Assembly: GCA_016184305.1 (NCBI GenBank)
Contig: JACPCX010000177.1
Span: 1 to 63,207, forward strand
Length of the DNA stretch: 63,207 bases
Source: Candidatus Rokuibacteriota bacterium
GTDB lineage: Bacteria > Methylomirabilota > Methylomirabilia > Rokubacteriales > CSP1-6
Direction of reading: 5' to 3'
Position 1 is the first letter of the stretch. Each line of letters opens with the position of its first letter. The translations under genes were made by a program, and so were the position numbers. Positions 5,367 to 26,936 of this stretch are shown piece after piece. The notes under the pieces are model-generated. The model saw nothing but the letters and a program-made list of their open reading frames with translations, had not been told where the DNA came from and made no database searches.

Positions 5367-6068
5367 ATGTCCGCCCGCGAGGTGCAGTCGTTCCTGAAGC
5401 ACAGTCCCGTCTTTGCCTCGCTCCCGGCGCGAGAGATCGAGACCCTCAGCGCCGTCGTCTCCGAGGACAGCTTCCGCGCCCGCGACTACGTCTTCATGGA
5501 GGGCGACCCGTCCCTGTCGCTGTGCATCGTCAAGTCCGGGCGGGTCAAGATCGTCAGGCACTCGCGATCCGGCAAGGACGTGGTGCTGGAGCTGCTCGGG
5601 CCGGGAGAGCTCTTCGGCGGCGTCGCGGTGATCGAGAAGCGCCCGTACCCGGCCAGCGCCCAGGCCACCGAGCCCAGCGTGATCCTCAAGCTCCCCGCCG
5701 ACGCCGTCATCGGTCTCTCCGAGCGGTACCCGACGGTGATCAAGGAGATGGCCCTCATGATCGGCCGCCGGCTCCGGGACGCGCATGACTCGGTGAAGTC
5801 ACTCGCCGTGGACCCCGTGGAGGCGCGCCTCGCCGCGACGCTCATCCGGCTGGGAGAGCGCGAGGGGACCAGGAGCCGGCAGGGGCTCACGCTCCCCTTC
5901 CATCTGACCCGACAGGGGCTGGCCGACATGACGGGCACCACGGTCGAGACGACCATCCGGGTCTTGAGCCGTTGGTCGAAGGACGGGCTGATCCTCGACG
6001 ACGGGGGCCGGCTCATCCTCACCGATCTCGAATCACTCCGCGCCCTCGCCCAGGGCGAGGAAGCGTAG
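5367..6068 (+). CDS. Crp/Fnr family regulator (DNR/HcpR/NnrR-like, no FNR Cys cluster)
   Basis: cNMP-binding fold (FMEGD..SGRVKI..GPGELFG..YPASAQA) and HTH with TVETTIRVLS (E-x3-R). Confidence 0.93.
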   Translation: MSAREVQSFLKHSPVFASLPAREIETLSAVVSEDSFRARDYVFMEGDPSLSLCIVKSGRVKIVRHSRSGKDVVLELLGPGELFGGVAVIEKRPYPASAQATEPSVILKLPADAVIGLSERYPTVIKEMALMIGRRLRDAHDSVKSLAVDPVEARLAATLIRLGEREGTRSRQGLTLPFHLTRQGLADMTGTTVETTIRVLSRWSKDGLILDDGGRLILTDLESLRALAQGEEA

Positions 6069-6094
6069 CCCACGTCCCCTCGGCCGGATATCCC

Positions 6095-6538
6095 GTGCCC
6101 CCGCTCATCCGCCGCTACATCAAGACGAGCTTCCTCTTCCTCCTGACCGGCCTGCTCCTCGGCGGCTATATCCTCGTGGGCGAGTTCGCCGTCGGCGCCT
6201 ATCCCCCGCGGCTCATGATCACCGCGCATGCGCATCTGCTCCTCGTGGGCTTCATGCTCATGATCGTCATGGGCGTCGCGACGTGGATGTTCCCGCGCCC
6301 GGGCCGCGACGACACGCATTACCGACCAGAGCTGGCGGAGGCCGTCTACTGGCTCATGACGTCGGGGACCGCGCTGCGCGCCGTCGCCGAGGTGTGGGGC
6401 GGCTTCTCGCCCGCGCCATTCCTCCGGCTCGCCATCGCCCTCGGCGGTCTCGCCCAGCTCGCCGGAGCCGCGCTCTTCGTCCTGAACATGTGGTGGCGCG
6501 TCCGGATGCCCACCGTCGCTCCCCCGCCCTCACGGTAA
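6095..6538 (+). CDS. Four-helix membrane protein with HxH motif (COX1-like fragment family)
   Basis: YIKTSFLFLL..TAHAHLLLVGFMLMIVMGVATWMFPRP. Confidence 0.75.
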   Translation: MPPLIRRYIKTSFLFLLTGLLLGGYILVGEFAVGAYPPRLMITAHAHLLLVGFMLMIVMGVATWMFPRPGRDDTHYRPELAEAVYWLMTSGTALRAVAEVWGGFSPAPFLRLAIALGGLAQLAGAALFVLNMWWRVRMPTVAPPPSR

Positions 6539-6689: not shown

Positions 6690-6941
6690 ATGACGCACTC
6701 TTGCGGTTGCCATTCCGCCGGTTCCCCGGAGATCTCGAAGGCGCTGCCGGCCTTCACCGCCGAGCAGACGGTGGAGGCGGTGTCGCGCCTCTCCCCAGGC
6801 GCGCTCGACGTGATGAAGGGCATGGGCATCAATCACTGCTGCGGCGGCCACCTCACGCTGCGCGAGGCCGCAGCCTCGGCGGGACTCGCGCTGGAGGCGC
6901 TGATCGAGGCCCTGCAGCGGACGGAGGGCGCGACGGCATGA
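6690..6941 (+). CDS. DUF542 (ScdA_N / RIC N-terminal) domain protein
   Basis: MGINHCCGGHLTLREAA, matching the RIC/YtfE DxCCGG motif. Strong RBS AAGGAGG. Confidence 0.85.
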   Translation: MTHSCGCHSAGSPEISKALPAFTAEQTVEAVSRLSPGALDVMKGMGINHCCGGHLTLREAAASAGLALEALIEALQRTEGATA

Positions 6942-7822
6942 TCTCGGCCGATTTCACCCTCGCCCGCCTCCTGGACGAGCACCCCGAGCTCGTGGAGGTG
7001 CTCGCGGATCTCAATCCGCACTTCAAGCATCTCCGCAATCAGCTGCTGCGCAAGGTGATGGCGCCGCGGGTCACCGTGGCGCAGGCCGCGCGCATCGCCG
7101 GCGTGCCGGAGGAGCAGATGCTGGAGGCGCTGAGGCGCGCGCTGGGCGAGCCGGCGGCCCCGGCCCCTTCCCCCGCCCTCTCCCCGCAGAGCACAGTTGG
7201 CTGCCCCGCGCCCTCCCTCTGCGAGGAAGAGGGCGGGAGCGGGCACGAGGGGAGAGGCGCCGAGGAGGGTGGATCGGCCATACCCGCGGCGCTGGCCGCC
7301 GTGCCCGCCTCGCGCCAGGTGCACATCGACGTCCGCCAGGACATCGCGCGCGGCCAGGAGCCCTTTGCCCGCATCATGGGCGCCGTCAAGGGGCTCGGCG
7401 AGGGCGACGTACTCGTGCTCCGCGCGCCTTTCGAGCCCGTCCCGCTCTACGACGTGCTCGGCAAGCGCGGCCTCGCCCACTGGTCCGAGCCCCTCGGCGC
7501 GGCCGACTGGCGGGTGTGGTTCTACCGGGAGGCTGCCGTGGCCGGCGCGGCAGACGCAGCCGCGCCATCAGCGCCGTCCGCCCCGGCGCCGAGCGTCATC
7601 GTGCGCATCGACGTCCGGGGACTCGAGCCGCCGCAGCCGATGGTGCGCGTGCTCGAGCAGCTGGACGGGCTCGGGGCCGGCCAGGGGCTCGAGGTGATCC
7701 ACGACCGGCGCCCGCTCTTCCTCTACCCACAGCTCGACGAGCGCGGCTTTGCGCATGACACCGACGAGCCCGAGGCCGGCGTGGTCCGTATCCTGATCCG
7801 GCGGAAGAGCGCCACGGGATGA
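6938..7822 (+). CDS. DUF1858 + tandem DUF2249 (TusA/SirA-like) domain protein
   Basis: LLDEHPELVEVL..TVAQAARIAGV, DVRQDIARGQEPFARIM..APFEPVPLY, and DVRGLEPPQPM..HDRRPLFLYPQL. Confidence 0.85.
   Translation: MISADFTLARLLDEHPELVEVLADLNPHFKHLRNQLLRKVMAPRVTVAQAARIAGVPEEQMLEALRRALGEPAAPAPSPALSPQSTVGCPAPSLCEEEGGSGHEGRGAEEGGSAIPAALAAVPASRQVHIDVRQDIARGQEPFARIMGAVKGLGEGDVLVLRAPFEPVPLYDVLGKRGLAHWSEPLGAADWRVWFYREAAVAGAADAAAPSAPSAPAPSVIVRIDVRGLEPPQPMVRVLEQLDGLGAGQGLEVIHDRRPLFLYPQLDERGFAHDTDEPEAGVVRILIRRKSATG
7175..7258. repeat. Palindromic REP-like element embedded in frame in the DUF2249 gene linker
   Basis: CCTCTCCCC (7177-7185) pairs with GGGGAGAGG (7249-7257), with a nested CCCTCT/AGAGGG stem. Confidence 0.55.
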
Positions 7823-9123
7823 CCCCGCCCCGCCCGGGTGGCGGCGTCCCGTCGGTCACACTGCCCCTTCGTTACATGGTCGCCGCGGCCATCGCCTTCG
7901 TCCTGGCGGCGGCAGGCACCGTGTGGCTTGCCTCCGAGCTGGCGGGCCACTACTACCAGCCCCGCGTCGTGGCGCTCACCCACACGGTGACCCTCGGCTG
8001 GATCACGCTCACGATCATGGGGGCAAGCTATCAGCTCGTCCCCATCGTCCTCGAGCGGCCGGTCTGGAGCGAAAGGCTCGCGCGCTGGCAGTTCCTGATC
8101 CTGGCGGGCGGGATCGCGGGCATGATCGCGCACTTGTACCTCGGCACCTGGCCGGGGCTCGGGCTGGCGGCGGGCGTCGTCGCCCTCGGCGCCACGCTCC
8201 ATCTGATCAACGCCCTGGCGAGCCTCCGGGGCGTCAGGACCTGGAGCTTCACCTCGCGGCTCCTGGCGGTGGCGCTCTCGGGCCTGGCCCTGACCGTCCT
8301 CTTTGGCCTCGCCCTGGCGGCGGACCGCCTCTGGAAGTTCCTGCCGGGAGAGTTCTTCCCCACGCTGCACGCCCACTTCCACCTGGCGCTCCTCGGCTGG
8401 GTGGCGCCGATGGTGATGGGCGTGGCGGCGCGCGTGTATCCCATGTTCCTCCTCGCCCGCGATCCGGAAGGGTGGCCCGGGGCGCTGCAGCTCTGGGGCC
8501 TCGCGCTCGGCAGCCCCGTCGTGGCGCTCGGGCTCCTCGCGGTGCCCATCCTCGTCCTCCCCGGGGCGCTGGCCGTCGGGGCCGCCGTCGCCGGACACCT
8601 CGCGTGGGTCTCCGAGATGGCCGCCAGCCGCAAGCGGCCGGCGCTGGACTGGGGGCTCCGCCTCGCGCTCACCGGCACGGCATTCCTCATCCCGGCGGGC
8701 CTCATGGGCCTCGGCTTCGCCGCGGACATGCTTGGCGGACCCCGGATGGGGCTCGCCTACGGCGTGCTCGCCCTCGGCGGCTGGGTCTCCCTCACCATCG
8801 TCGGCATGCTGTTCAAGATCGTGCCCTTCCTCGTCTGGTATCGCGCGTACAGCCCCAAGGCGGGGAAGGCGCCGGTGCCGACCCTCGCCCAGCTGTCGTG
8901 GCCGAGGGCCGAGGCCTGCACCTATGGGCTCCTCACCGTGGGCGTGAGCGCGCTCGCGCTCGCCGTGGGTGTGGGCGATCCCCTCTGGATCGGCGGCGCA
9001 GGCGCCATCGTCGTGCTCGGGGCGCTTGCCTTCGCGGTCTCGCTGGCGCGCGTGCTGACACATCTGGCGCCCACCCCGGGACGCCACCTTCCTGCCAGCA
9101 CGCTCAGCGTGCACACGCGATGA
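7819..9123 (+). CDS. Polytopic membrane protein with conserved His (COX1-/NnrS-like), DUF2249-associated
   Basis: About 12 hydrophobic segments; LTHTVTLGW, LHAHFHLALLGW, GMLFKIVPFLVW. Confidence 0.8.
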   Translation: MTPPRPGGGVPSVTLPLRYMVAAAIAFVLAAAGTVWLASELAGHYYQPRVVALTHTVTLGWITLTIMGASYQLVPIVLERPVWSERLARWQFLILAGGIAGMIAHLYLGTWPGLGLAAGVVALGATLHLINALASLRGVRTWSFTSRLLAVALSGLALTVLFGLALAADRLWKFLPGEFFPTLHAHFHLALLGWVAPMVMGVAARVYPMFLLARDPEGWPGALQLWGLALGSPVVALGLLAVPILVLPGALAVGAAVAGHLAWVSEMAASRKRPALDWGLRLALTGTAFLIPAGLMGLGFAADMLGGPRMGLAYGVLALGGWVSLTIVGMLFKIVPFLVWYRAYSPKAGKAPVPTLAQLSWPRAEACTYGLLTVGVSALALAVGVGDPLWIGGAGAIVVLGALAFAVSLARVLTHLAPTPGRHLPASTLSVHTR

Positions 9124-10559
9124 GCCTCTTCGACCGCGCGCCCTTCATCGTGATCTGGGAGACGACCCGCGCCTGCGCGCTGTCCTGCGTGCATTGTCGC
9201 GCCGAGGCGATCTCCCGCCGCGATCCTGGCGAGCTCACCACCGAGGAAGGGAAGCGGCTGCTGGACCGCGTCGCGGCCTTCGGCGATCCCGCGCCGATCC
9301 TCGTGCTGACCGGGGGGGATCCGCTCCGCCGCCCCGACATCACCGAGCTCGTGTCCCATGGCACGGCGCGCGGCATCAGCATGTCGCTCACACCCAGCGG
9401 CACCGCCGCCGTCACCGAGCCGCGGCTCCGCGCCCTGCGCGATGCCGGGCTGGCCCGGCTCGCGGTGAGCCTCGATGGCGCCACGGCGGAGGCTCACGAC
9501 GCCTTCCGCCGGGTCCGCGGCTCCCACCGCTACACCATGCGCATCATCGAGCACGCGCGGGCGCTCTCGCTGCCGCTCCAGATCAACACGACCGTCTGCA
9601 AGCAGACGCTGCGCGATCTGCCGGCGCTCGCGCGGCAGATGGAGGAGTACGGCGTCGTCCTCTGGGCCCTCTTCTTCCTGATCCCCGTGGGACGGGCCGT
9701 GGCGGATCAGGGGCTGCCCGCGGAGGAGATCGAGCGGGTGCTCGAGTGGGCGGCCGATCTCGCCACGCGGGCCCCGTTCGGCGTCAAGACCACCGAGGCG
9801 CCCCACTACCACCGCGTGCTCGCTCAGCGGGGCCAGTCGAGCCGGCCGGCGAGCATCGGGGCCGACGCCGCTCCCGGCCGCCCCGTGGCGGCCGCCCCCG
9901 GCCTCATCGGACGCGCCGGCCGCGCCGTCACGGACGGCAACGGCTTCGTCTTCGTCGATCACGTGGGCCGGATCTGCCCCAGCGGCTTCCTCCCCATGCC
10001 GGCGGGCAATGTCAGGACCGACGACCTGGTCGCCGTGTACCGCGAGCACCCGCTCTTCACGTCCCTGCGCGATCCCGCCCGGCTCGGCGGCCGCTGCGGC
10101 CGCTGCGAGTACCGCGATGGCTGCGGCGGAAGCCGGGCGCGCGCGTGGGCCGCGTCGAAGGACCCGCTCGCCGAGGACCCCGGCTGCGCCCATGTGCCGG
10201 GGCGCGCGCGTCCCGGGTCTGCGTGTGCCGCGACGGCCGCCCCCGTGATCGCGGGAGGATCGGATGCGCGTCCCGAGGTCACCGGAGAGCAGGTGACGCA
10301 GGCGCTCCGGACGGTGTTCGATCCAGAGCTCGGGATGTCCATCGTCGAGCTCGGCCTTGTCTACGGCATCGCCATCGACAACGGCGCAGTCAGGATCACG
10401 ATGACGCTGACGACGCCGGGCTGCCCGATCCAACACGTCATGCTTCAGTGGGTCCGGGAAGCCCTGATGCCAGTCCCCGGGGTGGAGCAGGTCGAGGTGG
10501 CCATCACCTTCGACCCGCCGTGGACGCCGGAGCGCATCATGCTCCCCTCGTCCCGCTGA
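9120..10559 (+). CDS. Radical SAM/SPASM protein (TIGR04053 / AhbD-NirJ-like) fused to C-terminal DUF59 (SufT/PaaD-like)
   Basis: WETTRACALSCVHCRA, LTGGDPL, SPASM CGRCEYRDGCGGSRARA..DPGC, then DPELGMSIVELGLVY..TTPGCP..FDPPW. Confidence 0.9.
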   Translation: MSLFDRAPFIVIWETTRACALSCVHCRAEAISRRDPGELTTEEGKRLLDRVAAFGDPAPILVLTGGDPLRRPDITELVSHGTARGISMSLTPSGTAAVTEPRLRALRDAGLARLAVSLDGATAEAHDAFRRVRGSHRYTMRIIEHARALSLPLQINTTVCKQTLRDLPALARQMEEYGVVLWALFFLIPVGRAVADQGLPAEEIERVLEWAADLATRAPFGVKTTEAPHYHRVLAQRGQSSRPASIGADAAPGRPVAAAPGLIGRAGRAVTDGNGFVFVDHVGRICPSGFLPMPAGNVRTDDLVAVYREHPLFTSLRDPARLGGRCGRCEYRDGCGGSRARAWAASKDPLAEDPGCAHVPGRARPGSACAATAAPVIAGGSDARPEVTGEQVTQALRTVFDPELGMSIVELGLVYGIAIDNGAVRITMTLTTPGCPIQHVMLQWVREALMPVPGVEQVEVAITFDPPWTPERIMLPSSR

Positions 10560-10757
10560 CCCGACTCCACCGCCCCACACAGCCCGGGGGCACCCGGCCC
10601 ATTGACAGCGTCCCGGGCGCCTGTCGTCCGCGTCCGCCTCCGGGACCTGGCCGAGCTCCGCGTCAAGAACTCCGGCGCCGGACGGCCGCGACCCAGCTCG
10701 GCCCGGGCCGGAGGGGAACCGGCGGCGGCCCCTCCCGCGCAGGCGGATTCTTCTCCG

Positions 10758-10773
10758 TATGACCTGCATCATA
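10758..10773. promoter_or_regulatory. Crp/Fnr-type operator upstream of the HCO/eNOR operon
   Basis: TATGA-CCTGCA-TCATA, same arms as the 6623 box. Confidence 0.7.
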
Positions 10774-10848
10774 GGGTGCGGTTCCGCCCGCATTCTACCG
10801 TCTGGTCATCACGCGGGGTGCTTCACCCACTCACACGGAGGGCGAGGA

Positions 10849-11019
10849 ATGGCGGACAAGGGCGGCGCGCGCGGCAAGGATCCGGAGGAGAAAGTCCCAC
10901 TGGCCCAGGCGTTCTTCGACAACATCTTCCTGCTGCTCGTGCTGGGGATCGTGGTCCCCACCGTCTTCTACACGATCTGGGGTCTCTTCGAGATCGCCAG
11001 CATCCCGCTCGCGAAATAG
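10849..11019 (+). CDS. Small single-TM subunit of the heme-copper enzyme (subunit IIa-like)
   Basis: FFDNIFLLLVLGIVVPTVFYTIWGLFEIASIPLAK, immediately upstream of subunit II, with RBS. Confidence 0.8.
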   Translation: MADKGGARGKDPEEKVPLAQAFFDNIFLLLVLGIVVPTVFYTIWGLFEIASIPLAK

Positions 11020-11029
11020 GAGGACCGCC

Positions 11030-11557
11030 ATGAGCCTGCAGACTCTCCAGGGCGTCTGGTGGAAGAAGGTCGACGCGAGCGAGAAGATGTGGATCGGCAT
11101 CGCGCTGGTCTGGTGCCTGATCCTCTTCGCCATGATGCCGCTCTGGCATCTCAAGGGCGGGCAGAACCCCTCCTTCGAGACCTACCGGACCAGCCCCGAG
11201 CAGTTCCTGAAGAAGGTCGAGGCCTTCGTGGAAAAGGGGCCCAAGGCGGGTGAGGAGAAGGGCCTTCCGGTGATCGCCCCCGATCCGAAGACCGAGGTCT
11301 TCATGCTGGGGCGCCTCTGGCAGTGGTACCCGGCGCTCAAGCTGAAGAAGGGCGAGACCTACCGCCTGCACCTCTCCTCCATGGATCTGGTCCACGGCTT
11401 CTCCCTCTTCCCCCTCAACCTGAACTTCATGGTTCTTCCGGGCTACGAGTACGTCCTGACCATCACGCCGACCACCACGGGCGAGGTCTTCGTGGTCTGC
11501 AACGAGTTCTGCGGGATCGGGCACCACCAGATGGTGGGCAAGATCACGGTCGAGTAG
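11030..11557 (+). CDS. Heme-copper oxidase/eNOR subunit II (CuA)
   Basis: One TM helix, DLVHGF and CNEFCGIGHHQM CuA ligands. Confidence 0.93.
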   Translation: MSLQTLQGVWWKKVDASEKMWIGIALVWCLILFAMMPLWHLKGGQNPSFETYRTSPEQFLKKVEAFVEKGPKAGEEKGLPVIAPDPKTEVFMLGRLWQWYPALKLKKGETYRLHLSSMDLVHGFSLFPLNLNFMVLPGYEYVLTITPTTTGEVFVVCNEFCGIGHHQMVGKITVE

Positions 11558-11568
11558 AGGAGACAAGC

Positions 11569-13236
11569 ATGGAAGCCGTCTACAGAACCTGCGCGCAGAC
11601 CGGTCTCAAGGTCCACAACCACGCCGAGCGCCTCATCAGGGCGAACGCCGTGGCCGGCGTCGTCTCGATTCTCTTCGGCGGCATCGCGGCCATCCTGGTG
11701 CTGCTCACACGGTGGCCGGCAGTGCACCTGCTGGATCCCACCAGCTTCTACCGGGCGCTGACCTTCCACGGCATCAACATGCTCATCTTCTGGATCATCT
11801 TCTTCGAGGTCGCCGTCCTGTACTTCGCGGGCCCCATCGTGCTGGGCTCGCGCCTGGCCTGGCCCAGGATCGGGTGGGTCTCCTTCGTCCTCATGGTGGC
11901 GGGTACGCTCCTCATCAACATCGCCATCCTGCAGGGCAAGGCCGACGTGATGTTCACCTCCTACGCTCCGATGCAGGCCGCGTCCCACTTCTATCTCGGC
12001 TGGATCCTCTTCGCCGTGGGCGCGCTGGTCGCGGTCTGCAACTTCTTCGCGAGCCTCGTGGTGGCCAAGGCCGAGCGCACCTACACCGGCTCCATCCCGC
12101 TCGTCACCTTCGGGGCGGCCACCGCCGGCATCATCGCGGTCGTCACGCTGGCCCACGGTGCCATCATCTACATCCCCACCTGGCTCTGGTCGCTGGGGAT
12201 CATCGAGAAGATCGACCCGGGAATCTACCGCCTGATCTGGTGGGGCCTCGGCCACTCCTCGCAGCAGATCAACGTGACCGCCATGGTCAGCATCTGGTAC
12301 CTCCTGGCCACGCTCACCGTCGGCGCGACGCCCATCAACGAGAAGGTGTGCCGCTCGGCCTTCCTCCTCTACATCCTCTTCATCAACCTGGCCTCGGCCC
12401 ACCACCTGCTCGTGGACCCGCAGCTGTCCCCCGCGTGGAAGATCTGGAACACCAGCTACGGCATGTACCTGGCGGTGCTGGCCAGCATGATCCACGGCAT
12501 GACGGTGCCCGCCTCGGTGGAGGTGGCGCAGCGGAAGAAGGGCCTCACCAAGGGGCTCTTCGAGTGGCTCGCCAAGGCGCCCTGGGGCAATCCGGGCTTC
12601 GCGGCGCTCGCGCTGTCGCTCTCCCTCTTCGGCTTCATCGGCGGCATCACCGGCGTCACCTTCGGCGCCGAGCAGATCAACATCATCTCCCACAACACGC
12701 TCCGGATCACCGGCCACTTCCACGCCACCGTGGTGGCGGGCACGACGATCGCCTTCATGGGGCTCACCTACTACGTGGTGCCGCTCATCTTCCGGCGCCA
12801 TCTGATCTCCACGAAGCTCGCCACGGCGCAGATTTACCTCTTCGGCATCGGCATGACGATCTTCATCGGCGGCATGACGACGGCCGGCTCCTACGCCATC
12901 CCGCGGCGCCACTGGGACGTGCAGTTCGCCACGTCGCTCTTCCAGCCGCCGGTGGAGGCCGCAGCGTTCGCCTTCCTGGGCATCATGGGCGTGGGCGGAC
13001 TCTTCGCGCTCGCGGGCGGCGCTCTCTACGTGCTGATCACGGTGGGCTCGGTGCTCTTCGGGCGCCGCGTGCCTGACACCCCCGGCGCGGTCCCGCTGGC
13101 CGCCATGCCCCAGGACAAGGGGCAGCACGTGCCGATCAAGGGCACCACGGTCCTGGTCCTTGTCTTTCTCGCATCCTTCATCATCTACTACTTCCTCAAC
13201 TGGAAGTGGCTGGCCGCCATCTGGATCGTGAAGTGA
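11569..13236 (+). CDS. Heme-copper superfamily subunit I, eNOR-type nitric oxide reductase
   Basis: All six His present (LTFHG, GLGHSSQQ, SAHHL, TGHFHA). The HPEVY Tyr position is Gln. Confidence 0.85.
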   Translation: MEAVYRTCAQTGLKVHNHAERLIRANAVAGVVSILFGGIAAILVLLTRWPAVHLLDPTSFYRALTFHGINMLIFWIIFFEVAVLYFAGPIVLGSRLAWPRIGWVSFVLMVAGTLLINIAILQGKADVMFTSYAPMQAASHFYLGWILFAVGALVAVCNFFASLVVAKAERTYTGSIPLVTFGAATAGIIAVVTLAHGAIIYIPTWLWSLGIIEKIDPGIYRLIWWGLGHSSQQINVTAMVSIWYLLATLTVGATPINEKVCRSAFLLYILFINLASAHHLLVDPQLSPAWKIWNTSYGMYLAVLASMIHGMTVPASVEVAQRKKGLTKGLFEWLAKAPWGNPGFAALALSLSLFGFIGGITGVTFGAEQINIISHNTLRITGHFHATVVAGTTIAFMGLTYYVVPLIFRRHLISTKLATAQIYLFGIGMTIFIGGMTTAGSYAIPRRHWDVQFATSLFQPPVEAAAFAFLGIMGVGGLFALAGGALYVLITVGSVLFGRRVPDTPGAVPLAAMPQDKGQHVPIKGTTVLVLVFLASFIIYYFLNWKWLAAIWIVK

Positions 13237-13243
13237 GGCGGTC

Positions 13244-14668
13244 ATGCGCACATCGGGCCATCGCATCCCCTCTCCCTCCCTCGGGGGGGAGAGGGAGATC
13301 AGCTCGCTCACGGTCGTGCCGGCCGCCACCCGGCGGCTCCTGATCGGGTGGCTCTCGCTCGCGCTGGCGTCGTTGGTGGTGGCCGGCATCTTCGCCGCGA
13401 TCGCCGCCTTCGCGCGCACGCCGGTCGTCCACACCCTCTTCTCCCCCAACGCGTTCCGGCTGGCGCTGACCTCGCACGTCACCTTCGCCTTCACCGTCTG
13501 GTTCGTCACCTTCGCGGGCGTGCTCTGGATCTACGTGGCCTGGCGGTCCAACTACCCCCTGGGCGTCGGCGCCTCCTGGGCCGCGCTGTCCCTGGCCGCG
13601 CTGGGCTCGGCGGCCATGGCGGTGCCGGCCTTCCTGGCCTCGGGCCAGCCCTACCTCAACGACTATCTCCCCGTGATCGACCAGCCGTTTTTCTGGGCAG
13701 GCCTGGTCCTGGTGGCGGCGGGCTTGAGCCTGGAGGCCGCGGCCTATCTGGCCGCCGCACTCCAGGGCGAGCGCCGGGCGCGGCGCCAGGGCGCGGCAGC
13801 CGGCTCGCCCGAGGGGCTCGCCATGGCGGCGGGCGCCGTCGCCATGCTGCTCGCCGTCGCGGCCACCGTGCTCGCCTTCTGGCGCCTCGATCCGGCCCTG
13901 CCCTTCGGCTACTCGCTCCGCGCCCTCGTCTGGGGCGGCGGGCACATCCTCCAGTACCTGCATGTGACCGGCATGGCCACGGGGTGGATCGTCGCCATCT
14001 CGGTGGCCCTGGTCACCGTGTTTCCCGCGCGCCGCGTCCTCCGGATACTCCTCTGGGTGCTCCTGCCCTTCATGGCGGCGGCCACCGCCTCGTACCTGGT
14101 GTGGCGGCCCGAGGAGCTCCTCATCAACCACCTGATCACGATCCTCACCTTCGGCGGCCTCGGCGCCGCCGGGGTGCCCGTGTTCTTCATGGCGGCGAGC
14201 GCCGTGGTGGCGGCGGGGCGCCCGCTGCCGTGGGCGAGCCCGCTCTTCGGCGGCACCGTCGTCTCCTTCGCGCTCTACGCCATCGGCGGCGTCATGGGGC
14301 TCATCGGCTTCACCCAGGACACGCGAGTGCCGGCCCATTACCACGGCATGGTCGGCGCCGTGACGCTCGCCTACATGGGGCTCACGCCCATGCTGCTCGA
14401 GATCTGCGGCCGCCGCCCGTGGAGCGCGAGGCTCACCCGGTGGCAGCCCTATCTCTACGGCATCGGGCTCCTCGGCATCATGATCGGCATGCACTGGGCC
14501 GGCGGGCACGGCGCCCCGCGAAAGACCTTCGGCTTCACCTGGGCCACTGCGCAGGCCATCCTGGGGATGAACATCATGGGGGCCGGCTCCGTACTCGCGA
14601 TCCTGGGCGGGCTCGCCTTCGTGCTCAACATGGGAATCCCGCTCGTCACGCGGAGGCGCCAATGCTGA
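13244..14668 (+). CDS. Degenerate heme-copper subunit I paralog (COX1 fold)
   Basis: About 12 TM; LTSHVTF, WGGGHILQ, VPAHYHG, GAPRK. The HH pair is absent. Confidence 0.75.
   Translation: MRTSGHRIPSPSLGGEREISSLTVVPAATRRLLIGWLSLALASLVVAGIFAAIAAFARTPVVHTLFSPNAFRLALTSHVTFAFTVWFVTFAGVLWIYVAWRSNYPLGVGASWAALSLAALGSAAMAVPAFLASGQPYLNDYLPVIDQPFFWAGLVLVAAGLSLEAAAYLAAALQGERRARRQGAAAGSPEGLAMAAGAVAMLLAVAATVLAFWRLDPALPFGYSLRALVWGGGHILQYLHVTGMATGWIVAISVALVTVFPARRVLRILLWVLLPFMAAATASYLVWRPEELLINHLITILTFGGLGAAGVPVFFMAASAVVAAGRPLPWASPLFGGTVVSFALYAIGGVMGLIGFTQDTRVPAHYHGMVGAVTLAYMGLTPMLLEICGRRPWSARLTRWQPYLYGIGLLGIMIGMHWAGGHGAPRKTFGFTWATAQAILGMNIMGAGSVLAILGGLAFVLNMGIPLVTRRRQC
13268..13295. repeat. CCCTCTCCC..GGGAGAGGG palindrome at the 5' end of the paralog gene
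   Basis: CCCTCTCCC-N10-GGGAGAGGG, same family as the 7175 element. Confidence 0.55.
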
Positions 14669-15531
14669 TCGCCGCCTACGTCGAGTCGCTCAAGCTGCGC
14701 GTCGGCACCTTCATCGGCATGGCGGCGGTCCTCGGTTACATCGCCACGGCCCCCGCGGGTCTGGCGCTGCCGTCGCTGGCAATCCTCTTCGCCGTCACCG
14801 TCATGGCGGCGGGCGGCGCGGGCGCGCTGAACCATTTCCTCGACCGGGACCTCGACGCCCGGATGCCCCGCACCGCCAGGCGTCCCCTGCCCTCGGGGCG
14901 CATCCGCCACCCCTGGCACGTGGTGGCGCTGGGGCTGGGGCTCGTGATGCTCGCGGTGAGCCTGGCCCTGTGGCAGCTGAACCGGCTGGTCGCTCTTCAC
15001 GTGTTCCTCGGGGCCTTCACCTACGTGGTCGTCTACACGATCTGGCTCAAGCGGCGCTCCTGGCTCAACGTGGTGATCGGCGGACTGGCCGGCTCCTTCG
15101 CCGTGCTGGCGGGCGGCGCGCTGGCCCGCCCCGAGCTCTGCCTGCCGCCGGTCATCTTCGCCGCCGTGCTCTTCTTCTGGAGCCCGTCGCATTTCTGGTC
15201 TCTCGCCATCGCCTACAAGACCGAGTATGCGGGAGCCCTGATCCCCATGCTCCCCGCGGTCAAGGGAGAGGCCCGCACCGCCCGGAGCATCCTTCTCAAC
15301 ACGGTGGGGCTCCTGGCCTCGAGCCTCCTGCCCTTCGCCCTCGGCATGCTCGGCTGGGTCTACCTCGTCCTCGGCGTGCTGCTCGGTGGAGGACTCCTCC
15401 TGACTCGCAACCTGCAGCTCGCGCGCCGGCCGGGGGACCGAAGGCTCGCGCTCACCAACTTTCACGCCTCGAACCTCTTCCTCCTGCTCCTGTTCCTGGC
15501 CGTGGTCATCGACGTCGTGGCTCGACGCTAA
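14662..15531 (+). CDS. ctaB: Protoheme IX farnesyltransferase (heme O synthase)
   Basis: NHFLDRDLDARMPRTARRPLPSG, YTIWLKRRS, FWSPSHFWSLAI..EY..IPMLP. Confidence 0.93.
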   Translation: MLIAAYVESLKLRVGTFIGMAAVLGYIATAPAGLALPSLAILFAVTVMAAGGAGALNHFLDRDLDARMPRTARRPLPSGRIRHPWHVVALGLGLVMLAVSLALWQLNRLVALHVFLGAFTYVVVYTIWLKRRSWLNVVIGGLAGSFAVLAGGALARPELCLPPVIFAAVLFFWSPSHFWSLAIAYKTEYAGALIPMLPAVKGEARTARSILLNTVGLLASSLLPFALGMLGWVYLVLGVLLGGGLLLTRNLQLARRPGDRRLALTNFHASNLFLLLLFLAVVIDVVARR

Positions 15532-15684
15532 GCCTGCGCGCGCACCGGGCCAGCGGGGCCTGGCGAGGCGCCGGGCCGCCTGGAGGCGGGCTTCCTGCCG
15601 ATCACATACGCTCATGCGGCTGGCAGGCCCACTTCCTGCTAAGGTAGGGGCCGACCCGAGACAGCTGGGAGGGCAAGCCGAAGC

Positions 15685-17208
15685 GTGCGCGCGGGAATCG
15701 GCCGGCAGATCAACATCGCCATCGGGGCGGGCTTCGCCCTCGTCCTCGTGGTGGGCGGAATCTCCGTGCTGCTGGCCTGGACCATCTCCGCGGGAGTTGA
15801 GGAGGGGCGGCACCGGCGGTTCGAGGTCGATGCCATCAACCGGATCCACAGCACCGTTCACCACTTCGTCGCTCACCTCCACCTGGCGCTCCTGGGCACT
15901 GCAGCGCCCGGGCACCCGTCCCCCGCGGAGATCCTCGACGAGCTGAAGCGGCGGATCGCCGCATACCATGCCTTCGAGCGGACCCAGGGGAGCGATGAGT
16001 CACGCCAGGAGCTGGGTCGCCTCTCGGAGCTGCAGGCCCTGGTGGCCCAGCTCGAGGTCGCCTCCCGAGCGGTGCTCGGGGCCCTTGGCCGAGGTCAGCC
16101 ACCCACCGCCGCCGAGGTGGTGGCCATCAACGAGCTGGCCCATGAGCGGGTCGCGGGAATCGTCCAGGAGCTGCACACCGTACACGAGCGGAAGCTCGAG
16201 CGCGCCATCGACGGAACCCAGCGGCGGATGTTCCTGATCTCGAGCTTGTACGTGACGTTCGCGGTGGGCGGCGCATCGCTGCTCCTCCTCGGCAACCGGT
16301 TCCTGTCCCGGCGCCTCGTCTCGCCCATCGGCCGTCTCGCCCAGGCTGCCCTGCGCATCGCCGGTGGCGACCTCGCCCAGCGCGTTCCCGTCCGATCCGG
16401 GGACGAGGTGGGGCGGCTCTCCCGGGCGTTCAACGTCATGACCGAGCGCCTGGAGGCGCACGAGGCCGAGCGGCTGAACTTTCAGGCGGAGCTCGAGCGG
16501 CAGGTCAAGGAGCGAACGCGCGAGCTCGAGGACACCGCAGCAAGGCTCCAGGCCACGCAGGCCGAGCTCATCCGGTCCGAGCGGATCGCCGTGACGGGCC
16601 AGATCGCGGCCGGGGTCACGCACGAGATCCGCACCCCCCTCAACTCCCTCGCGATCAACGTCCAGCTGCTCCGCCGGGAGCTCTCGGCCGAGGCCGCCCC
16701 GGCGTCGCTGCGCGAGGCCCTCGGCACCTTCGCCATGGTGGAGTACGAGATCACGCGGATCAACCGGATCCTGGAGGAGTTCGTCAGGTTCGCGCGTCTC
16801 CCGGCGCCGCGGTTCGAGACCGTCGAGATCGGCGCCCTCCTGCAGGAGATCCTTGGGCTGCTGGGCCCCCAGGCGGCCAGGGCCGGCGTGCGCCTCGAGG
16901 CCCGGCGGCTCTCGCCGGGGGCCGCCGTGAGAGGGGATCCGGATCAGCTGCGCGAGGTCTTCCTCAACCTGGGCCAGAACGCGCTGCAGGCCATGCCGAA
17001 CGGGGGCGCGCTCGGCCTGGAGGTGACCCGGGAGGCGATCTTCGTTCCCTTCGTCAGCAGCAAGGCCGACGGTCTCGGCCTCGGGCTTCCCATCGTCAAG
17101 CGGATCGTCGAGGAGCACGGGGGAAGCGTGTCGTGCCAGAACCGTGTCGGGGGCGGGGCCAGCTTCCTCGTCCGGCTTCGCGCCGCCGGGCCCTCCACCG
17201 GGGGGTGA
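15685..17208 (+). CDS. HAMP sensor histidine kinase; ATPase domain lacks the G1 box
   Basis: 2 TM, HAMP, HEIRTPLN, N box LNLGQNALQAM, then directly IFVPF and GLGLGL. Confidence 0.8.
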   Translation: MRAGIGRQINIAIGAGFALVLVVGGISVLLAWTISAGVEEGRHRRFEVDAINRIHSTVHHFVAHLHLALLGTAAPGHPSPAEILDELKRRIAAYHAFERTQGSDESRQELGRLSELQALVAQLEVASRAVLGALGRGQPPTAAEVVAINELAHERVAGIVQELHTVHERKLERAIDGTQRRMFLISSLYVTFAVGGASLLLLGNRFLSRRLVSPIGRLAQAALRIAGGDLAQRVPVRSGDEVGRLSRAFNVMTERLEAHEAERLNFQAELERQVKERTRELEDTAARLQATQAELIRSERIAVTGQIAAGVTHEIRTPLNSLAINVQLLRRELSAEAAPASLREALGTFAMVEYEITRINRILEEFVRFARLPAPRFETVEIGALLQEILGLLGPQAARAGVRLEARRLSPGAAVRGDPDQLREVFLNLGQNALQAMPNGGALGLEVTREAIFVPFVSSKADGLGLGLPIVKRIVEEHGGSVSCQNRVGGGASFLVRLRAAGPSTGG

Positions 17209-21524: not shown

Positions 21525-23090
21525 CTACGAGGGGCCCGGCACCGCCTCGGCCGCGGGCAGAAGCCCCGCGGCGGGTAGCTCCCGGAGCTCCAGGATCAGC
21601 GCATCGAGGCGAGCCGCCGTGTGGCGGGAGTACTCGTACAGGTGCTTGTGCATCAGCGCGAGCGTGACGGCGTCCCGGATGGCGCGGGGGCGCCGGAGGG
21701 CCGTCTCCAGGACCATGGAGAGCGTCAGCCAGGCGCGGCGCGGCGAGGCGTTGAGCACGCAGGCCCAGACGATGCGGAGCAGCAGCGTGAGATCGCCGGG
21801 CGTGGTCGCGAGCCGGGATGTGCGGAGCGCCCCCCGCCCCAGGATCAGCGCCATGGCGCGCCTGCGGTAGTTCCCGTAGTCGTAGAGCCGCTCCAGCAGC
21901 CTCCGGTAGCCCTCGTAGAGCTCCAGGCGTGACATGCCCTTGGGGATGATGTTGGTGAAGACGAACTGGTCCCCCACCGACTCGGCGATGAGCCGGCCGG
22001 CCGCCTTGAGCCGATCGTAGAGCGGCGTCTTGGGCACGGCATTGAGCATCCCGGTCATGGAGATGGGGATGCGGGCGGCCTGGATGAAGCGGAACTGCTC
22101 CTCGAAGATCTCCGGGTCGTCGCTGTCGAATCCCACGATCATCCCGGCCATGACCTCGATGCCGGCGGCCTGGATGCGGTGGACCGAGGTGAGGATGTCC
22201 TCCCGCATGTTCTGCGTCTTCCCGGTGGACTCGAGACTGGCTCTCCGCGGCGACTCGATGCCCACGAAGATGGTCGAGAAGTCGGCCCGCCTCATGAGCG
22301 CCAAGAGCTCGTCGTCCTGGGCCACGTTGAGGGACACCTCGGTCATGAACTCCACGGGGTAGCCGTTGGCCTCCTGCCACGTGGCCAGCGCCAGCAGCAG
22401 CTTCTTGGCTTCCTTCTTGTTGCCGATGAAGTTGTCGTCCACCACGAAGATGTTCCGCACGCCGAGCCGGTGGATTTCCTCCACCTCGGCCATGACCTGC
22501 TCCACCGACTTGGTGCGCGGGCGGCGGCCGTACATGACGATGATATCGCAGAAGTCGCAGTTGAAGGGGCAGCCGCGGGCGAACTGGATGGCCATGCTGC
22601 GGTAGCGCCCGATCTTGAGGAGGTCGAAGCGCGGCAGCGGCGAGTCCAGCATGCTGGGCTTCTCCTCCTGCCGGTACTCCGCCTGCCACGCGCCGGCCTC
22701 ATACTCCCGGATGAATTGCGGCCAGGTGTACTCGGCCTCGTCCACGAAGAGCACGTCCACGCGCCCGCGCAGCTCGTCGGGGCAGAGCGAGGCGAAGGGG
22801 CCGCCCGCCACCACGAACTTCCCGCGCCGGCGAAGCTCCTCGATGATCTCGAACATCCGCGTCTTGTGGACCACGTAGCCCGTGACGCCCACGATGTCGG
22901 CGTCGGTGTCGAAGTCTATGGACTCGACGTTCTCGTCGCAGAGGACGATCTCATGCCCCGCGGGCGTGAGCGCCGCCACCGTGGGGAGCGAGAGGTTGGG
23001 GAAGGCGCAGCGCTTGCCGAGGCTCGGCAGGATGCGGTCGAAGGTCCAGAAGGACTCGGGATTCCTTGGCGCGATCAGGTAGATCTTCAC
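21525..23090 (-). CDS. B12-binding radical SAM protein (class B, DUF4070; HpnP-related family)
   Basis: RGCPFNCDFC, VDDNFIGN, GIES, N-terminal cobalamin-binding domain. Confidence 0.9.
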   Translation of the reverse strand: MKIYLIAPRNPESFWTFDRILPSLGKRCAFPNLSLPTVAALTPAGHEIVLCDENVESIDFDTDADIVGVTGYVVHKTRMFEIIEELRRRGKFVVAGGPFASLCPDELRGRVDVLFVDEAEYTWPQFIREYEAGAWQAEYRQEEKPSMLDSPLPRFDLLKIGRYRSMAIQFARGCPFNCDFCDIIVMYGRRPRTKSVEQVMAEVEEIHRLGVRNIFVVDDNFIGNKKEAKKLLLALATWQEANGYPVEFMTEVSLNVAQDDELLALMRRADFSTIFVGIESPRRASLESTGKTQNMREDILTSVHRIQAAGIEVMAGMIVGFDSDDPEIFEEQFRFIQAARIPISMTGMLNAVPKTPLYDRLKAAGRLIAESVGDQFVFTNIIPKGMSRLELYEGYRRLLERLYDYGNYRRRAMALILGRGALRTSRLATTPGDLTLLLRIVWACVLNASPRRAWLTLSMVLETALRRPRAIRDAVTLALMHKHLYEYSRHTAARLDALILELRELPAAGLLPAAEAVPGPS

Positions 23091-23441: not shown

Positions 23442-24326
23442 ATGGTGAGCGCGCTGTTCTCCCACCGGCTCTTCGCGCCGTCGCTGGTCCTGGGCATCTT
23501 CGGCCTCGGGGCGCTGACGGTGGCCTTCCTCCTCTTCGGTCCGGGCATGGCGCCGTGGGCCGACACGCTCCTCACCGCCTGCTTCGGCTGGAACGCCGAG
23601 ACCCGCCACTATCGCCTCGACTCCCTCATCCTGACGCTGCTGCAGCCGCCGCTCTTCGTCGCGGTCGTCTCCTTCTTCTACCCGGACGAGCTGCGGGCAT
23701 TCCTCCGGTCCCACGCCGGACGCGTCCTCGCGGGCACCACGCCGGCGCTGTTCCTCGCGCTCGCCGCCTCGCTCCTGGCCACCAGCGAGATCTCGGCCTC
23801 GGGTGTGGCGCCGGCCCCGGCGGGGCTGGCAGCGCCGCTGCGCCAGGGCGGCCCGGCCCCCGCGTTCTCGCTGACCGACCATCGGGGGCGCACGGTGTCG
23901 CTCGGGAGCTTCAAGGGCCGCCCCGTGGCCATGACGTTCGTCTACGCGAACTGCCACGCCACCTGCCCGATCCTCATCCAGAGACTCAAGGCCATCGAGG
24001 CAAGAACGGCGCCCGGCGCGGCCGCCTTCGTGGCCGTGAGCCTGGACCCGGAGCGCGACACTCCAGGTGCCCTTGCCCACGCGGCCCACCAGTGGGAAGT
24101 CGGGGAGCGGTGGCACCTGCTCAGCGGCCCCACCGAGGCCGTGCGCGCTGTCCTCCGCGCCTACGGCGTCCAGTGGGCGCCGCTCCCCGAGGGCGAGATC
24201 GCCCACGACAATCTCGTGCTCCTCATCGACGCGCGGGGACGGCTGGCATTCACGTATCGCGGGCTCGCGCACCCGGAGGACCGCCAGGTGGCCGACCTTG
24301 CTCGGCTCGCGAGAGAGCAGGGCTAG
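23442..24326 (+). CDS. SCO1/SenC copper chaperone with N-terminal membrane domain
   Basis: YANCHATCP (CxxxC), SLDPERDT, IAH. Confidence 0.9.
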   Translation: MVSALFSHRLFAPSLVLGIFGLGALTVAFLLFGPGMAPWADTLLTACFGWNAETRHYRLDSLILTLLQPPLFVAVVSFFYPDELRAFLRSHAGRVLAGTTPALFLALAASLLATSEISASGVAPAPAGLAAPLRQGGPAPAFSLTDHRGRTVSLGSFKGRPVAMTFVYANCHATCPILIQRLKAIEARTAPGAAAFVAVSLDPERDTPGALAHAAHQWEVGERWHLLSGPTEAVRAVLRAYGVQWAPLPEGEIAHDNLVLLIDARGRLAFTYRGLAHPEDRQVADLARLAREQG

Positions 24327-24330
24327 GCCC

Positions 24331-26010
24331 ATGTACTCTCCCGGGTCGCGAGAGCCCGCCGCGGCGGGCCCCGCCGAGGGTGCGCCCACGCCGCCGCCGC
24401 GCCCGGCGCCCCGGGCGGTCCCCTTCACCATCTTTCCCGCTCCCAGCCGGCCCACGGAACCTCTCCACCGCCGCGGGCTCGCCGCGGTGGGTATGGCCTA
24501 TCAGTGGGTTGAGGTGCTGCTCGACCGCCTGGTCTCGGCGCCGCTGAACCCGCTCTATCACAGCGGGACCATCGCGGTGTTCTCGCTGGCGGTGGCGCTC
24601 GTGACCGGCATCTATCTCTTCCTCTTTTATCGGGTCGGCACGGATGCCGCGCATCAGTCCATCGAGGGCATCATGGCGCACCCCCTGGGGATCGGGTCGC
24701 TGATGCGCTCGCTCCACCGTTATTCCTCGGATGCGGCCATGCTGGCCGCGGCGCTCCACGGCCTCAAGATGTTCCTCACCGACCGGTTCTGGGGCGCGCG
24801 GTGGATCGGCTGGGTCACGGGGCTCACCCTGCTGGCGCTCGTCTGGGTCACGGGCGCCACGGGCTACTGGCTCGTGTGGGACACGCAGGCCCAGGTGCTC
24901 TCCGTGACCTCGGCGAAGCTCCTCGACGTGCTGCCGGTCTTCGGCGAGCCGCTGATCCGCACCTTCCTCGATGCGGGCCGCATCCAGAACTTCCTCTTCT
25001 TCGTTGTCCTCTTCATCCACATCACCATCCCGATCCTGCTCGGGGTGGCCTACTGGATGCACGTCATGCGCCTCTCGCGCGCGCGCTTCATGCCGCCGCG
25101 CGTGGTCCTGTGGGTGACGGGGGCCGCGCTCGTGATCGCCAGCGTGCTCCGGCCGGGGCTCTCGGGCCCGCCCGCCGATCTCGGGCGGTTGCCCGGCATC
25201 GTCCCGCTGGACTGGTTCTACTTCTTCTATTTCCCGCTGACGCGGCTCGATCCGCTCTGGGGCTGGGGCATCGTCGGCGTCGGGAGCGTCGTCACGCTCG
25301 CCGTGCCCTGGGTGCTGCGCGGGGCCGCGCCGCCGCGGGCGAAGGTGGAGAACCCCGCCTGCACGGGCTGCACCCGCTGCTGGAAGGACTGCCCCTACGA
25401 GGCCATCATCATGGTCCCGCGTCCGGCCGACGGCAGCCGCTACAAGCAGATGGCGGTGGTGAACCCCGCCAAGTGCGTGGGCTGCGGCATCTGCGTGGGC
25501 GCCTGCGACTCCGCCGGCATCCTCCTCGGCGACCAGCCCGTGAGCCTGCTGGGCCAGGCCGTGGCGAGCCGGCTGCGCAGCGTGGCCGCGGCCTCGGGCG
25601 GCCAGGCCCCGGTGCTCGTCTACACCTGCCGGCTCATGCGCGGGCTCCAGGGCCGGCTCAGGGCCGACGGGACCCTCGAGGGACTCCCGGGCGTCACGGT
25701 CATGGGCCTCCCCTGCGTGGGCACGCTCCACCCGGACATGATCACCAAGTCCCTCGAGGCCGGCGCCCGCGGCATCTTCGTGGCCGGCTGCGTCCCCGAG
25801 GACTGCCCGTACCGCGAGGGCAGCCTCTGGCTCGCCGAGCGCCTCCAGGGGCAGCGTCTGCCCTCCCTCAAGACGTTGCCCGAGGGCCGCCTGCGGGTGC
25901 GCTGGTACTCCCCCGTGGAGGTGGGACGCTTCCTCGCCGAGCTCCGCGCCTTCCAGCGCCAGCTTCCCGCCGGAGCGGGGACGCCGCGGACCGAGGCGGT
26001 CCAGGCATGA
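24331..26010 (+). CDS. Cytochrome b (N-terminal) + 2x[4Fe-4S] + MvhD/FlpD [2Fe-2S] fusion
   Basis: RSLHRYSSD..ALH, FIHITIP..WMH, CTGCTRCWKDCP, CVGCGICVGAC, PCVG..GC.PEDCPYREG. Confidence 0.85.
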   Translation: MYSPGSREPAAAGPAEGAPTPPPRPAPRAVPFTIFPAPSRPTEPLHRRGLAAVGMAYQWVEVLLDRLVSAPLNPLYHSGTIAVFSLAVALVTGIYLFLFYRVGTDAAHQSIEGIMAHPLGIGSLMRSLHRYSSDAAMLAAALHGLKMFLTDRFWGARWIGWVTGLTLLALVWVTGATGYWLVWDTQAQVLSVTSAKLLDVLPVFGEPLIRTFLDAGRIQNFLFFVVLFIHITIPILLGVAYWMHVMRLSRARFMPPRVVLWVTGAALVIASVLRPGLSGPPADLGRLPGIVPLDWFYFFYFPLTRLDPLWGWGIVGVGSVVTLAVPWVLRGAAPPRAKVENPACTGCTRCWKDCPYEAIIMVPRPADGSRYKQMAVVNPAKCVGCGICVGACDSAGILLGDQPVSLLGQAVASRLRSVAAASGGQAPVLVYTCRLMRGLQGRLRADGTLEGLPGVTVMGLPCVGTLHPDMITKSLEAGARGIFVAGCVPEDCPYREGSLWLAERLQGQRLPSLKTLPEGRLRVRWYSPVEVGRFLAELRAFQRQLPAGAGTPRTEAVQA

Positions 26011-26629: not shown

Positions 26630-26922
26630 CCTGATCCGCGACATGGGGATCACGGTCTTCCTCATCGAGCATGACATGAAGGTGATCATGGACGAGCCCT
26701 CGATGGGGCTGTCGCCGCTGTACGCGGACCGGATCTTCGATATCATCCAGGAGCTCAATCGCCAGGGCATCGCCATCCTGCTGGTGGAGCAGAACGCCAA
26801 CATGGCCCTCGGCATCGCGCAGCGCGGCTACGTGCTGCAGACCGGGCGCGTGGTGCTGGCCGACACGGCGGTGAACCTGGGTCAACCACCCCACGATGCG
26901 CAAGGCATACCTCGAGCTGTGA
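26630..26922 (+). pseudogene. Collapsed livG/livF-type ABC ATPase remnant
   Basis: LivG-type LIEHDMKVIM is fused to LivF-type DEPSMGL..LVEQNANMAL..YVLQTG. The end MRKAYLEL* is in a shifted frame. Confidence 0.75.
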
Positions 26923-26936
26923 CCACAGGAGGCCCC

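Follow-up and report, generated by a model that had tools for sequence, protein, structure and literature searches.

A 63,207-nucleotide (nt) stretch of DNA, referred to here as the window, was analyzed around a 474-amino-acid open reading frame (ORF; positions 13244 to 14668, + strand) whose product, together with its family, we call X. The window is a contig of 70% GC from a metagenome-assembled genome of the Rokubacteria/Methylomirabilota (239 contigs; 88.8% complete), and X stands in it between the subunit genes of a nitric oxide (NO) reductase of the eNOR type and ctaB, the gene for heme O synthase. X is a widespread, previously uncharacterized and repurposed subunit I of the heme-copper oxidases (HCO). 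With a probability of roughly 0.5, we read it as a non-catalytic, heme-binding paralog of eNOR subunit I that serves in cofactor biogenesis as an assembly helper. The lines consistent with this reading are the retention of the heme pockets with loss of catalysis, the coupling and fusion to heme O synthase, the company of Sco1 and of TPR proteins, and a purified eNOR that shows two bands. The fold, residue pattern, phylogeny, gene context, fusions and distribution of X were observed directly.

Fold, conserved residues and phylogeny of X

The Pfam COX1 domain (PF00115) covered the full protein, with residues 34 to 445 of X aligned to positions 4 to 429 of the 436-position profile (44.6 bits; cut-off, 34.8). 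It was the sole Pfam match of X, which contained no PF02628 domain, and no NCBIfam model matched the protein. In a three-way alignment of X with the neighboring subunit I (28% identity) and the A-family subunit I of the same genome (20%), H78 (TSHVTF) fell on the column of the helix II heme histidine, H365 and H367 (AHYH) on those of both helix X heme histidines, and H234 (GGGHILQ) on that of the first CuB/FeB histidine; the columns of the His-His pair were occupied by S283-Y284. Residues Q237, R426 and K427 were also kept. Set against the features of an HCO subunit I, X has the fold and the three heme histidines, and of the three CuB/FeB histidines H234 alone remains. The AlphaFold model was all-helical (predicted local distance difference test [pLDDT], 85.6; predicted template modeling score [pTM], 0.88), and its best structural match was subunit I of the Thermus thermophilus ba3 oxidase (3s8f_A; E value, 3.3e-9; TM score, 0.75; 19 to 20% identity). 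A sequence search of the PDB with the X family profile gave 0 matches at an E value of 0.001. X is some 80 residues shorter than eNOR subunit I. An earlier note on this DNA had described a COX1-fold protein that keeps the heme histidines and the first metal histidine and lacks the HH pair, and the Pfam match, the alignment and the model agree on that description.

A word-indexed search returned 179 relatives of X, chiefly from Rokubacteria and from metagenome proteins without names; the public names of relatives were "hypothetical," "cytochrome c oxidase subunit 1" and "cbb3-type subunit I." When 1.84 billion cluster representatives were searched with a profile, 1,437 matched at an E value of ≤0.001 and 478 at ≤1e-30. 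Conservation was assessed in 149 full-length proteins (50%-identity cluster representatives), taken from the best 150 plus three others. H365 was present in all 149, and H78, H234, Q237, Y366, H367, R426 and K427 were each present in 148. The His-His pair was absent in 147 and present in 2, one of which (P0217) grouped with real eNOR in the tree described below. Altogether, 13 positions were either kept in 148 or 149 of the 149 proteins or invariant in a 56-row alignment.

Among 53 eNOR subunit I sequences, 154 columns were at least 95% conserved; in 23 of them, 80% or more of 129 X proteins had the residue conserved in eNOR. The survivors were the heme ligands, the Trp-x-x-Gly-His-x-x-Gln motif and the first Arg of the Arg-Arg pair, the second Arg being always Lys in X. 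Missing from X in comparison with eNOR are the metal ligands, the diagnostic Gln four residues after the histidine (Phe in 85, Tyr in 12 and Gln in 0 of the 129 proteins) and a series of polar residues in helices VI to VIII. Most of these polar eNOR columns were hydrophobic or variable in the 129 X proteins, and the proton path, with the channels mapped by alignment only, is not retained. Since the heme-core columns survive and the metal, Gln and polar columns are gone, X is, to judge from its sequence, apparently a subunit I cut down to its heme pockets.

In a tree of 53 rows (IQ-TREE quick search, with support from the Shimodaira-Hasegawa-like approximate likelihood ratio test), 39 of the 40 X rows formed one clade (support, 99). 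Its sister group comprised five eNOR subunit I sequences (joint support, 98), a relation valid only within this sample, because the references were without sNOR, gNOR, nNOR and the C family. One Tyr-bearing B-like oxidase and six A-family sequences fell outside X plus eNOR. X itself lies outside the eNOR clade and lacks the Gln of its members. The records in which its loci were found were titled Methylomirabilota/Rokubacteria, Aquificaceae, Chloroflexi, Acidobacteria, and alpha- and betaproteobacteria (Rhodocyclaceae).

Gene neighborhoods, fusions and CtaA

The genes of the window operon follow one another on the + strand in the order eNOR subunit II, subunit I, X and ctaB. Subunit II, a cupredoxin identified by domain matches (positions 11030 to 11557), contains a CxExCGxxHxxM sequence that we take to be a CuA-type motif. 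Subunit I (positions 11569 to 13236) was assigned by alignment and by its motifs GHSSQQINV, AHH, GHFH and PRRHW. As subunit I carries the eNOR motifs, among them, in GHSSQQ, the diagnostic Gln that takes the place of the cross-linked Tyr, the operon is assigned on sequence grounds as that of an eNOR; this Gln is given as the mark that defines eNOR in PMC8756737. The X start codon follows the subunit I stop codon (position 13236) after a gap of 7 nt, and the X stop codon (TGA, 14666 to 14668) overlaps the ATG of ctaB at 14662 by 7 nt (ATGCTGA); the earlier note had already pointed out that X and ctaB overlap. The X reading frame is intact, with a GC content at third codon positions (GC3) of 0.95. 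The product of ctaB (positions 14662 to 15531) matched the heme o synthase model TIGR01473 (255.8 bits; cut-off, 210.3) and falls into a clade of CtaB proteins whose genes accompany X and eNOR. A scan of window positions 10400 to 15900 for promoters and terminators gave no signal exceeding that of shuffled sequences. Further downstream, beyond about 8 kb of other genes that include a histidine kinase and a sigma-54 regulator, lie the genes for a Sco1/SenC copper chaperone (23442 to 24326, +) and a cytochrome b/4Fe-4S/FlpD fusion protein (24427 to 26010, +; start codon approximate).

The surroundings of X were surveyed in 46 genome loci and 80 metagenome loci. Each scan started from two conserved peptides, and the family is therefore unevenly sampled. 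The metagenome loci are biased toward members carrying the two peptide patterns, many of their contigs are short, and their scan used a narrower family alignment, the diverse one being too variable. Within 6 kb of X, ctaB was found in 44 of the 46 genome loci and 51 of the 80 metagenome loci, Sco1 in 25 and 39, an eNOR-like subunit I in 25 and 36, the cytochrome b/4Fe-4S/FlpD protein in 21 and 33, and ctaA in 18 and 1, respectively. Where at least 1 kb of downstream sequence was available, ctaB lay directly downstream of X in 21/43 genome and 37/63 metagenome loci. Where at least 3 kb was available on both sides, a gene of this module lay within 3 kb in 31/31 and 16/18 loci, respectively. In the 21 Methylomirabilota-type loci, ctaB followed X in every case and eNOR subunit I preceded it in 20, the remaining contig beginning inside X. 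The recurrent order in related loci was subunit II, subunit I, X, ctaB, Sco1 and the cytochrome b/Fe-S/FlpD gene. For their part, the X-linked CtaB proteins from several phyla grouped in a single clade (17 rows; support, 99) that excluded five other CtaBs.

Among 17 long X members scanned, X was joined to CtaB in 2, to Sco1 in 3, to TPR domains in 6 (some of which touched the CcmH/CycH TPR model) and to cytochrome b in 1; the other 5 had no added Pfam domain. Every fusion partner identified belongs to this gene module. In the cytochrome b-X fusion (P0150), the cytochrome b domain was 35% identical over 242 residues (E value, 3e-43) to the cytochrome b/Fe-S/FlpD protein of the window. The model of a natural X-CtaB fusion (P0126) gave two confident domains (pLDDT, 90.3); since its pTM was 0.64 and the linker (residues 446 to 461) was disordered, it is silent on a defined X-CtaB interface.

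Hydrogenobacter has two X paralogs. One (L042) stands behind ctaA-ctaB, and the second (L082; G018:C4) lies in a denitrification island with the order eNOR II, eNOR I, X, Sco1, nirS and heme d1 genes. The eNOR subunit I of Hydrogenobacter shows His/Lys ligation of the low-spin heme, a variant of that ligand described in eNOR by Murali et al. (PMC11214002).

A whole-genome search with PF02628, the CtaA domain, gave matches on contig C149 only and none on the window contig (C123), in line with the absence of ctaA from the window pointed out earlier. The ctaA on C149 belongs to a caa3-type operon that also encodes CtaG and contains another ctaB. CtaA was looked for in 25 of the 46 X-bearing genomes, and all 25 had a match above the cut-off, although 4 of these matches were weak (29 to 37 bits on their own) and lay in long frames. 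Moreover, 17 of the 46 genome loci had the order ctaA-ctaB-X, and their records were titled Aquificaceae in 16 cases and Acidobacteria in one; in two of these loci scanned with Pfam, no oxidase structural gene was found within about 5 kb. Because CtaA co-occurs with X in all 25 genomes, X is an addition to CtaA and not a substitute for it, and the anti-correlation with ctaA that had been predicted for the family is absent.

The role of X and competing explanations

According to the reading that we favor, X would have arisen by duplication of an eNOR-like subunit I. It would have retained two heme pockets, namely, a bis-His low-spin site (H78/H367) and a His365 site, together with an Arg-Lys pair in place of the Arg-Arg pair that holds the heme propionates in oxidases, and would have shed the FeB/CuB ligands and the proton pathway. 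Translational coupling would allow it to be produced together with a dedicated heme O synthase, with which it may form one polypeptide in some organisms. X would then take up prenylated heme (heme O from CtaB, or heme A/As after CtaA) in its subunit-I-like pockets and would hold it, protect it or pass it to nascent eNOR subunit I, probably at an assembly hub in the membrane, with Sco1 and TPR partners as further members. In this scheme we infer heme binding by X, the hand-over step and every physical contact. eNOR carries heme As at both sites (PMC11214002), and the enzyme purified from R. marinus showed two bands, taken as subunits I and II (bioRxiv 10.1101/2021.10.15.464467); since there are two bands, there is no sign of a third stoichiometric subunit. 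The earlier note had also suggested a heme-insertion scaffold for eNOR. This is plausible and fits better than a replacement of CtaA, given the retained heme core, the ctaB, Sco1 and eNOR neighbors and the fusions, except that X is dispensable for eNOR in many organisms.

This dispensability is one of several points that weigh against a role as assembly helper. Of 201 Methylomirabilota genomes sampled, 20 contained X at full length, and one fragment was found besides, in each case with an eNOR cross-match adjoining wherever the contig allowed. Ten more of these genomes gave a weaker match only, and eight of the ten, on examination, were eNOR II-I pairs with the eNOR motifs and without X. Neither X nor ctaA nor Sco1 was found in the flanks of these eight loci (1.6 to 9 kb per side); in one (L077), a weak ctaB-like match in a long frame lay within 4 kb. 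These bare pairs represent another type of eNOR (score against the window subunit I, about 700 bits; same active-site motifs; L074 to L081, in genomes G093, G217, G091, G117, G142, G209, G171 and G222). Similarly, eNOR subunit I was found in 27 of 401 sampled alphaproteobacteria. The 20 eNOR loci studied there contained subunits II and I, with ctaB in 13, Sco1 in 19 and the cytochrome b protein in 19, and X in none of the 20 within about 9 kb. Genome-wide, true X (385 to 413 bits, versus about 200 for eNOR cross-matches) was present in 4 of the 27 and absent from the other 23. As many eNOR genomes have no X, eNOR can be made without it.

The converse also occurs. In two metagenome contigs of 41% GC (L120 and L121), X has TldD/DUF4911 genes on one side and GrpE-Hsp20-DnaK genes on the other, and neither an oxidase nor a heme gene was found within about 4 kb; in a third locus (L035), X likewise stands apart, among unrelated genes. 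Since L120 and L121 stand alone, the family is not always found at an eNOR or ctaB locus. The co-occurrence of X with eNOR and ctaB expected by the earlier note is thus real (subunit I in 25 and ctaB in 44 of the 46 genome loci) but not obligatory, given these three loci and the many alphaproteobacterial eNOR genomes that have no X. In addition, the cytochrome b/Fe-S/FlpD neighbor, its fusion to X and a NuoF-like neighbor in one locus (L105) point to an input of electrons, which a passive chaperone would not need, and the invariant His234 and Gln237 of the distal pocket suggest more than storage. Fusions of adjacent genes can arise without direct functional contact, and our literature search found no experiment on any member of the X family.

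The lack of X in many eNOR organisms may be likened to that of Surf1, without which aa3 oxidases are made, although less well (PMC9145763). Surf1 (PF02104) was found in 0 of 29 to 30 Methylomirabilota genomes, with or without X, and in 2 of 5 genomes from outside the Methylomirabilota; neither of the 2 Hydrogenobacter genomes searched had it. As it was absent both with and without X, the two show no complementary pattern.

The signs of electron input suggest the main rival explanation, which we regard as unlikely although it has several points in its favor, namely, that X acts in heme maturation as a redox-active enzyme or an electron relay. Electrons would pass from a cytoplasmic donor through the Fe-S and FlpD domains and the two-heme cytochrome b to the low-spin heme of X. 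At His365/His234/Gln237, they would keep heme ferrous for CtaB or drive an oxidative tailoring of heme O; this could be an additional heme A-type synthase activity, useful at very low oxygen. Heme O synthase needs ferrous heme in vitro, which would suit such a role. So would the frequency of the cytochrome b/4Fe-4S/FlpD protein near X, the natural cytochrome b-X fusion, the adjoining flavoprotein gene of L105, the retention of His234 and Gln237 in 148 of 149 proteins each and the rarity of ctaA in X-containing eNOR loci (1/80 in the metagenome set). A recent preprint, moreover, asks how an O2-dependent synthesis of heme A serves an eNOR made anoxically (10.64898/2026.01.22.701106). However, the same cytochrome b protein is present in 19 of 20 alphaproteobacterial eNOR loci without X and is therefore independent of X, and no match to it was found in the 3- to 10-kb flanks of the 17 ctaA-ctaB-X loci. 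CtaA accompanies X in all 25 genomes tested, the polar proton-path residues conserved in eNOR are lost, and heme As is reported to need only CtaB, with a C20 donor, and CtaA (PMC11214002).

A more specific version, in which X and the cytochrome b/Fe-S/FlpD protein form an electron-driven machine that tailors or reduces heme on the product of the dedicated CtaB, appears quite improbable. If it were true, this machine would supply the heme As of eNOR when O2 is too scarce for the CtaA route or NO disturbs that route, and it would represent a second, unrelated supply of a heme A-type cofactor, built from a recycled oxidase subunit.

We think it distinctly improbable that X is an alternative heme-only subunit with a catalytic or sensing function, for example, an NO or O2 binder that would either partner subunit II or relay a signal to the neighboring two-component system. 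The retained heme site of the five-coordinate type, with its distal His and Gln, would suit such a binder, and so would the location of X in denitrification islands (nirS adjoins it in Hydrogenobacter, and genes for hemerythrin and DUF2249 proteins lie nearby) and the histidine kinase and sigma-54 regulator behind ctaB in the window. Yet this kinase-regulator pair is not conserved, Sco1 following ctaB directly in relatives; no subunit II or regulator lies near the ctaA-ctaB-X operons of the Aquificaceae type; and the fusion partners are biogenesis proteins rather than signalling domains.

The earlier note had preferred a strict replacement of CtaA by X as the heme A synthase of this organism, on the grounds of the coupling to ctaB and of a window without ctaA. 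The two heme sites of X, one bis-His and one open, would also resemble the cofactor/substrate layout of CtaA. With ctaA beside a second ctaB and a caa3-type oxidase on C149, CtaA in 25/25 X genomes, 17 ctaA-ctaB-X operons among the 46 genome loci and no PF02628 match in X, this proposal can hardly be upheld. Finally, it is scarcely credible that X is a decaying duplicate without function, as the lost active-site ligands and the long branches within the family might suggest, in view of its intact frame with a GC3 of 0.95, 478 cluster representatives at E values of ≤1e-30, loci across several phyla and 13 near-invariant positions.

Surrounding genes, significance and related systems

The cytochrome b/4Fe-4S/FlpD protein, preceded by Sco1, was a near-constant companion of eNOR (19/20 alphaproteobacterial loci; also L031, L082, L105 and L163 to L182). 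Such genes have been called "rather unusual" in eNOR operons (10.64898/2026.01.22.701106); in the loci surveyed here, by contrast, they are the rule. The ctaB, Sco1 and cytochrome b/Fe-S/FlpD genes make up a conserved accessory module of eNOR, with or without X, which is relevant to the production of N2O by aerobic denitrifiers.

Upstream of the operon, on the + strand, lies a further group of genes (6938 to 10559) that also occurs near X in several relatives. Its first gene (6938 to 7822) encodes a protein with one DUF1858 and two DUF2249 domains, as judged by domain matches. The second (7819 to 9123) encodes a 434-amino-acid membrane protein with an N terminus weakly like oxidase helices IX to XI (Pfam COX1, 32 bits, below the cut-off; hhalign probability to X, 61%). 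The third (9120 to 10559) encodes a radical SAM/SPASM protein (TIGR04053; 457.5 bits; cut-off, 395) fused to a DUF59 Fe-S assembly domain; its AhbD-like score (306 bits) was below the cut-off. This group could constitute a second maturation system related to heme or NO. It is preceded by a Crp/Fnr-type regulator (5367 to 6068), a small membrane ORF just downstream of it (about 6080 to 6538, +) with a weak COX1 N-terminal match (28 bits) and an HAH motif as in the 434-amino-acid protein, and then an 83-amino-acid ORF (6690 to 6941, +) with a CCGG motif that presumably resembles the N-terminal domain of the ScdA/RIC iron-center repair proteins. The Sco1/cytochrome b pair, in turn, is flanked by genes for a B12-binding radical SAM protein with DUF4070 (21525 to 23090, - strand) and a uroporphyrinogen decarboxylase-like (URO-D family) protein (26643 to 27860, +), which may be further tetrapyrrole-related genes of the region.

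A search of the literature found no named description of the X family. A preprint of 2026 has one sentence on an "eNOR scaffold protein of unknown function," which probably refers to X. Murali et al. (2024; PMC11214002) described eNOR, heme As and "a CtaA homolog" in many eNOR operons. X is not described in the abstract or sections 5 to 7 of that article, and the words "scaffold," "ctaB" and "Sco1" do not occur in its supplements other than file 4 and the SI Appendix figures. X was also considered as this "CtaA homolog" and was ruled out, as it has no CtaA domain. No paralog of this kind appears in the portions consulted of two reviews, one on oxidase assembly (PMC9145763) and one on the evolution of CtaA (PMC8239418). 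The first of them, from 2022, states that it is unknown how heme A reaches subunit I and calls the transfer of prenylated hemes from CtaB/CtaA into subunit I unresolved (PMC9145763). X, which is tied genetically to heme O synthase and to a copper chaperone, is a testable candidate for this missing step. On the practical side, if members of the family were counted under their public names, "cbb3-type subunit I" or "cytochrome c oxidase subunit I," aerobic respiration or NO reduction would be overestimated in groups such as Rokubacteria and Aquificae.

Of the known systems, the sister clade, eNOR subunit I, has the same fold as X and is in most cases encoded immediately upstream of it; the two share the heme histidines, the first metal histidine and, three residues further on, a Gln. 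X differs in having neither the His-His metal ligands nor the diagnostic Gln and in keeping only 23 of the 154 conserved columns. Subunit I of the Thermus ba3 oxidase, the top structural match (TM score, 0.75), is only 19 to 20% identical to X and has a full CuB site and a cross-linked Tyr. CtaA/Cox15, proposed to hold one cofactor heme and one substrate heme, resembles X in being a membrane protein encoded beside ctaB, but its fold and family are unrelated. In some bacteria, CtaA is itself fused to CtaB (PMC8239418). Surf1/Shy1 are non-essential, lineage-restricted helpers thought to hold heme A and pass it to subunit I (PMC9145763). The role proposed for X would be theirs, although no relation in sequence or fold exists between them. 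CbaX of the Thermus ba3 oxidase is also a helper of the Surf1/Shy1 kind. A purely conceptual parallel may be drawn with NifEN, which differs from X in fold, cofactor and pathway. NifEN, the scaffold paralog of the nitrogenase NifDK, derives from the duplication of a catalytic subunit, is no longer catalytic and provides the platform where the cofactor is made ready for transfer.

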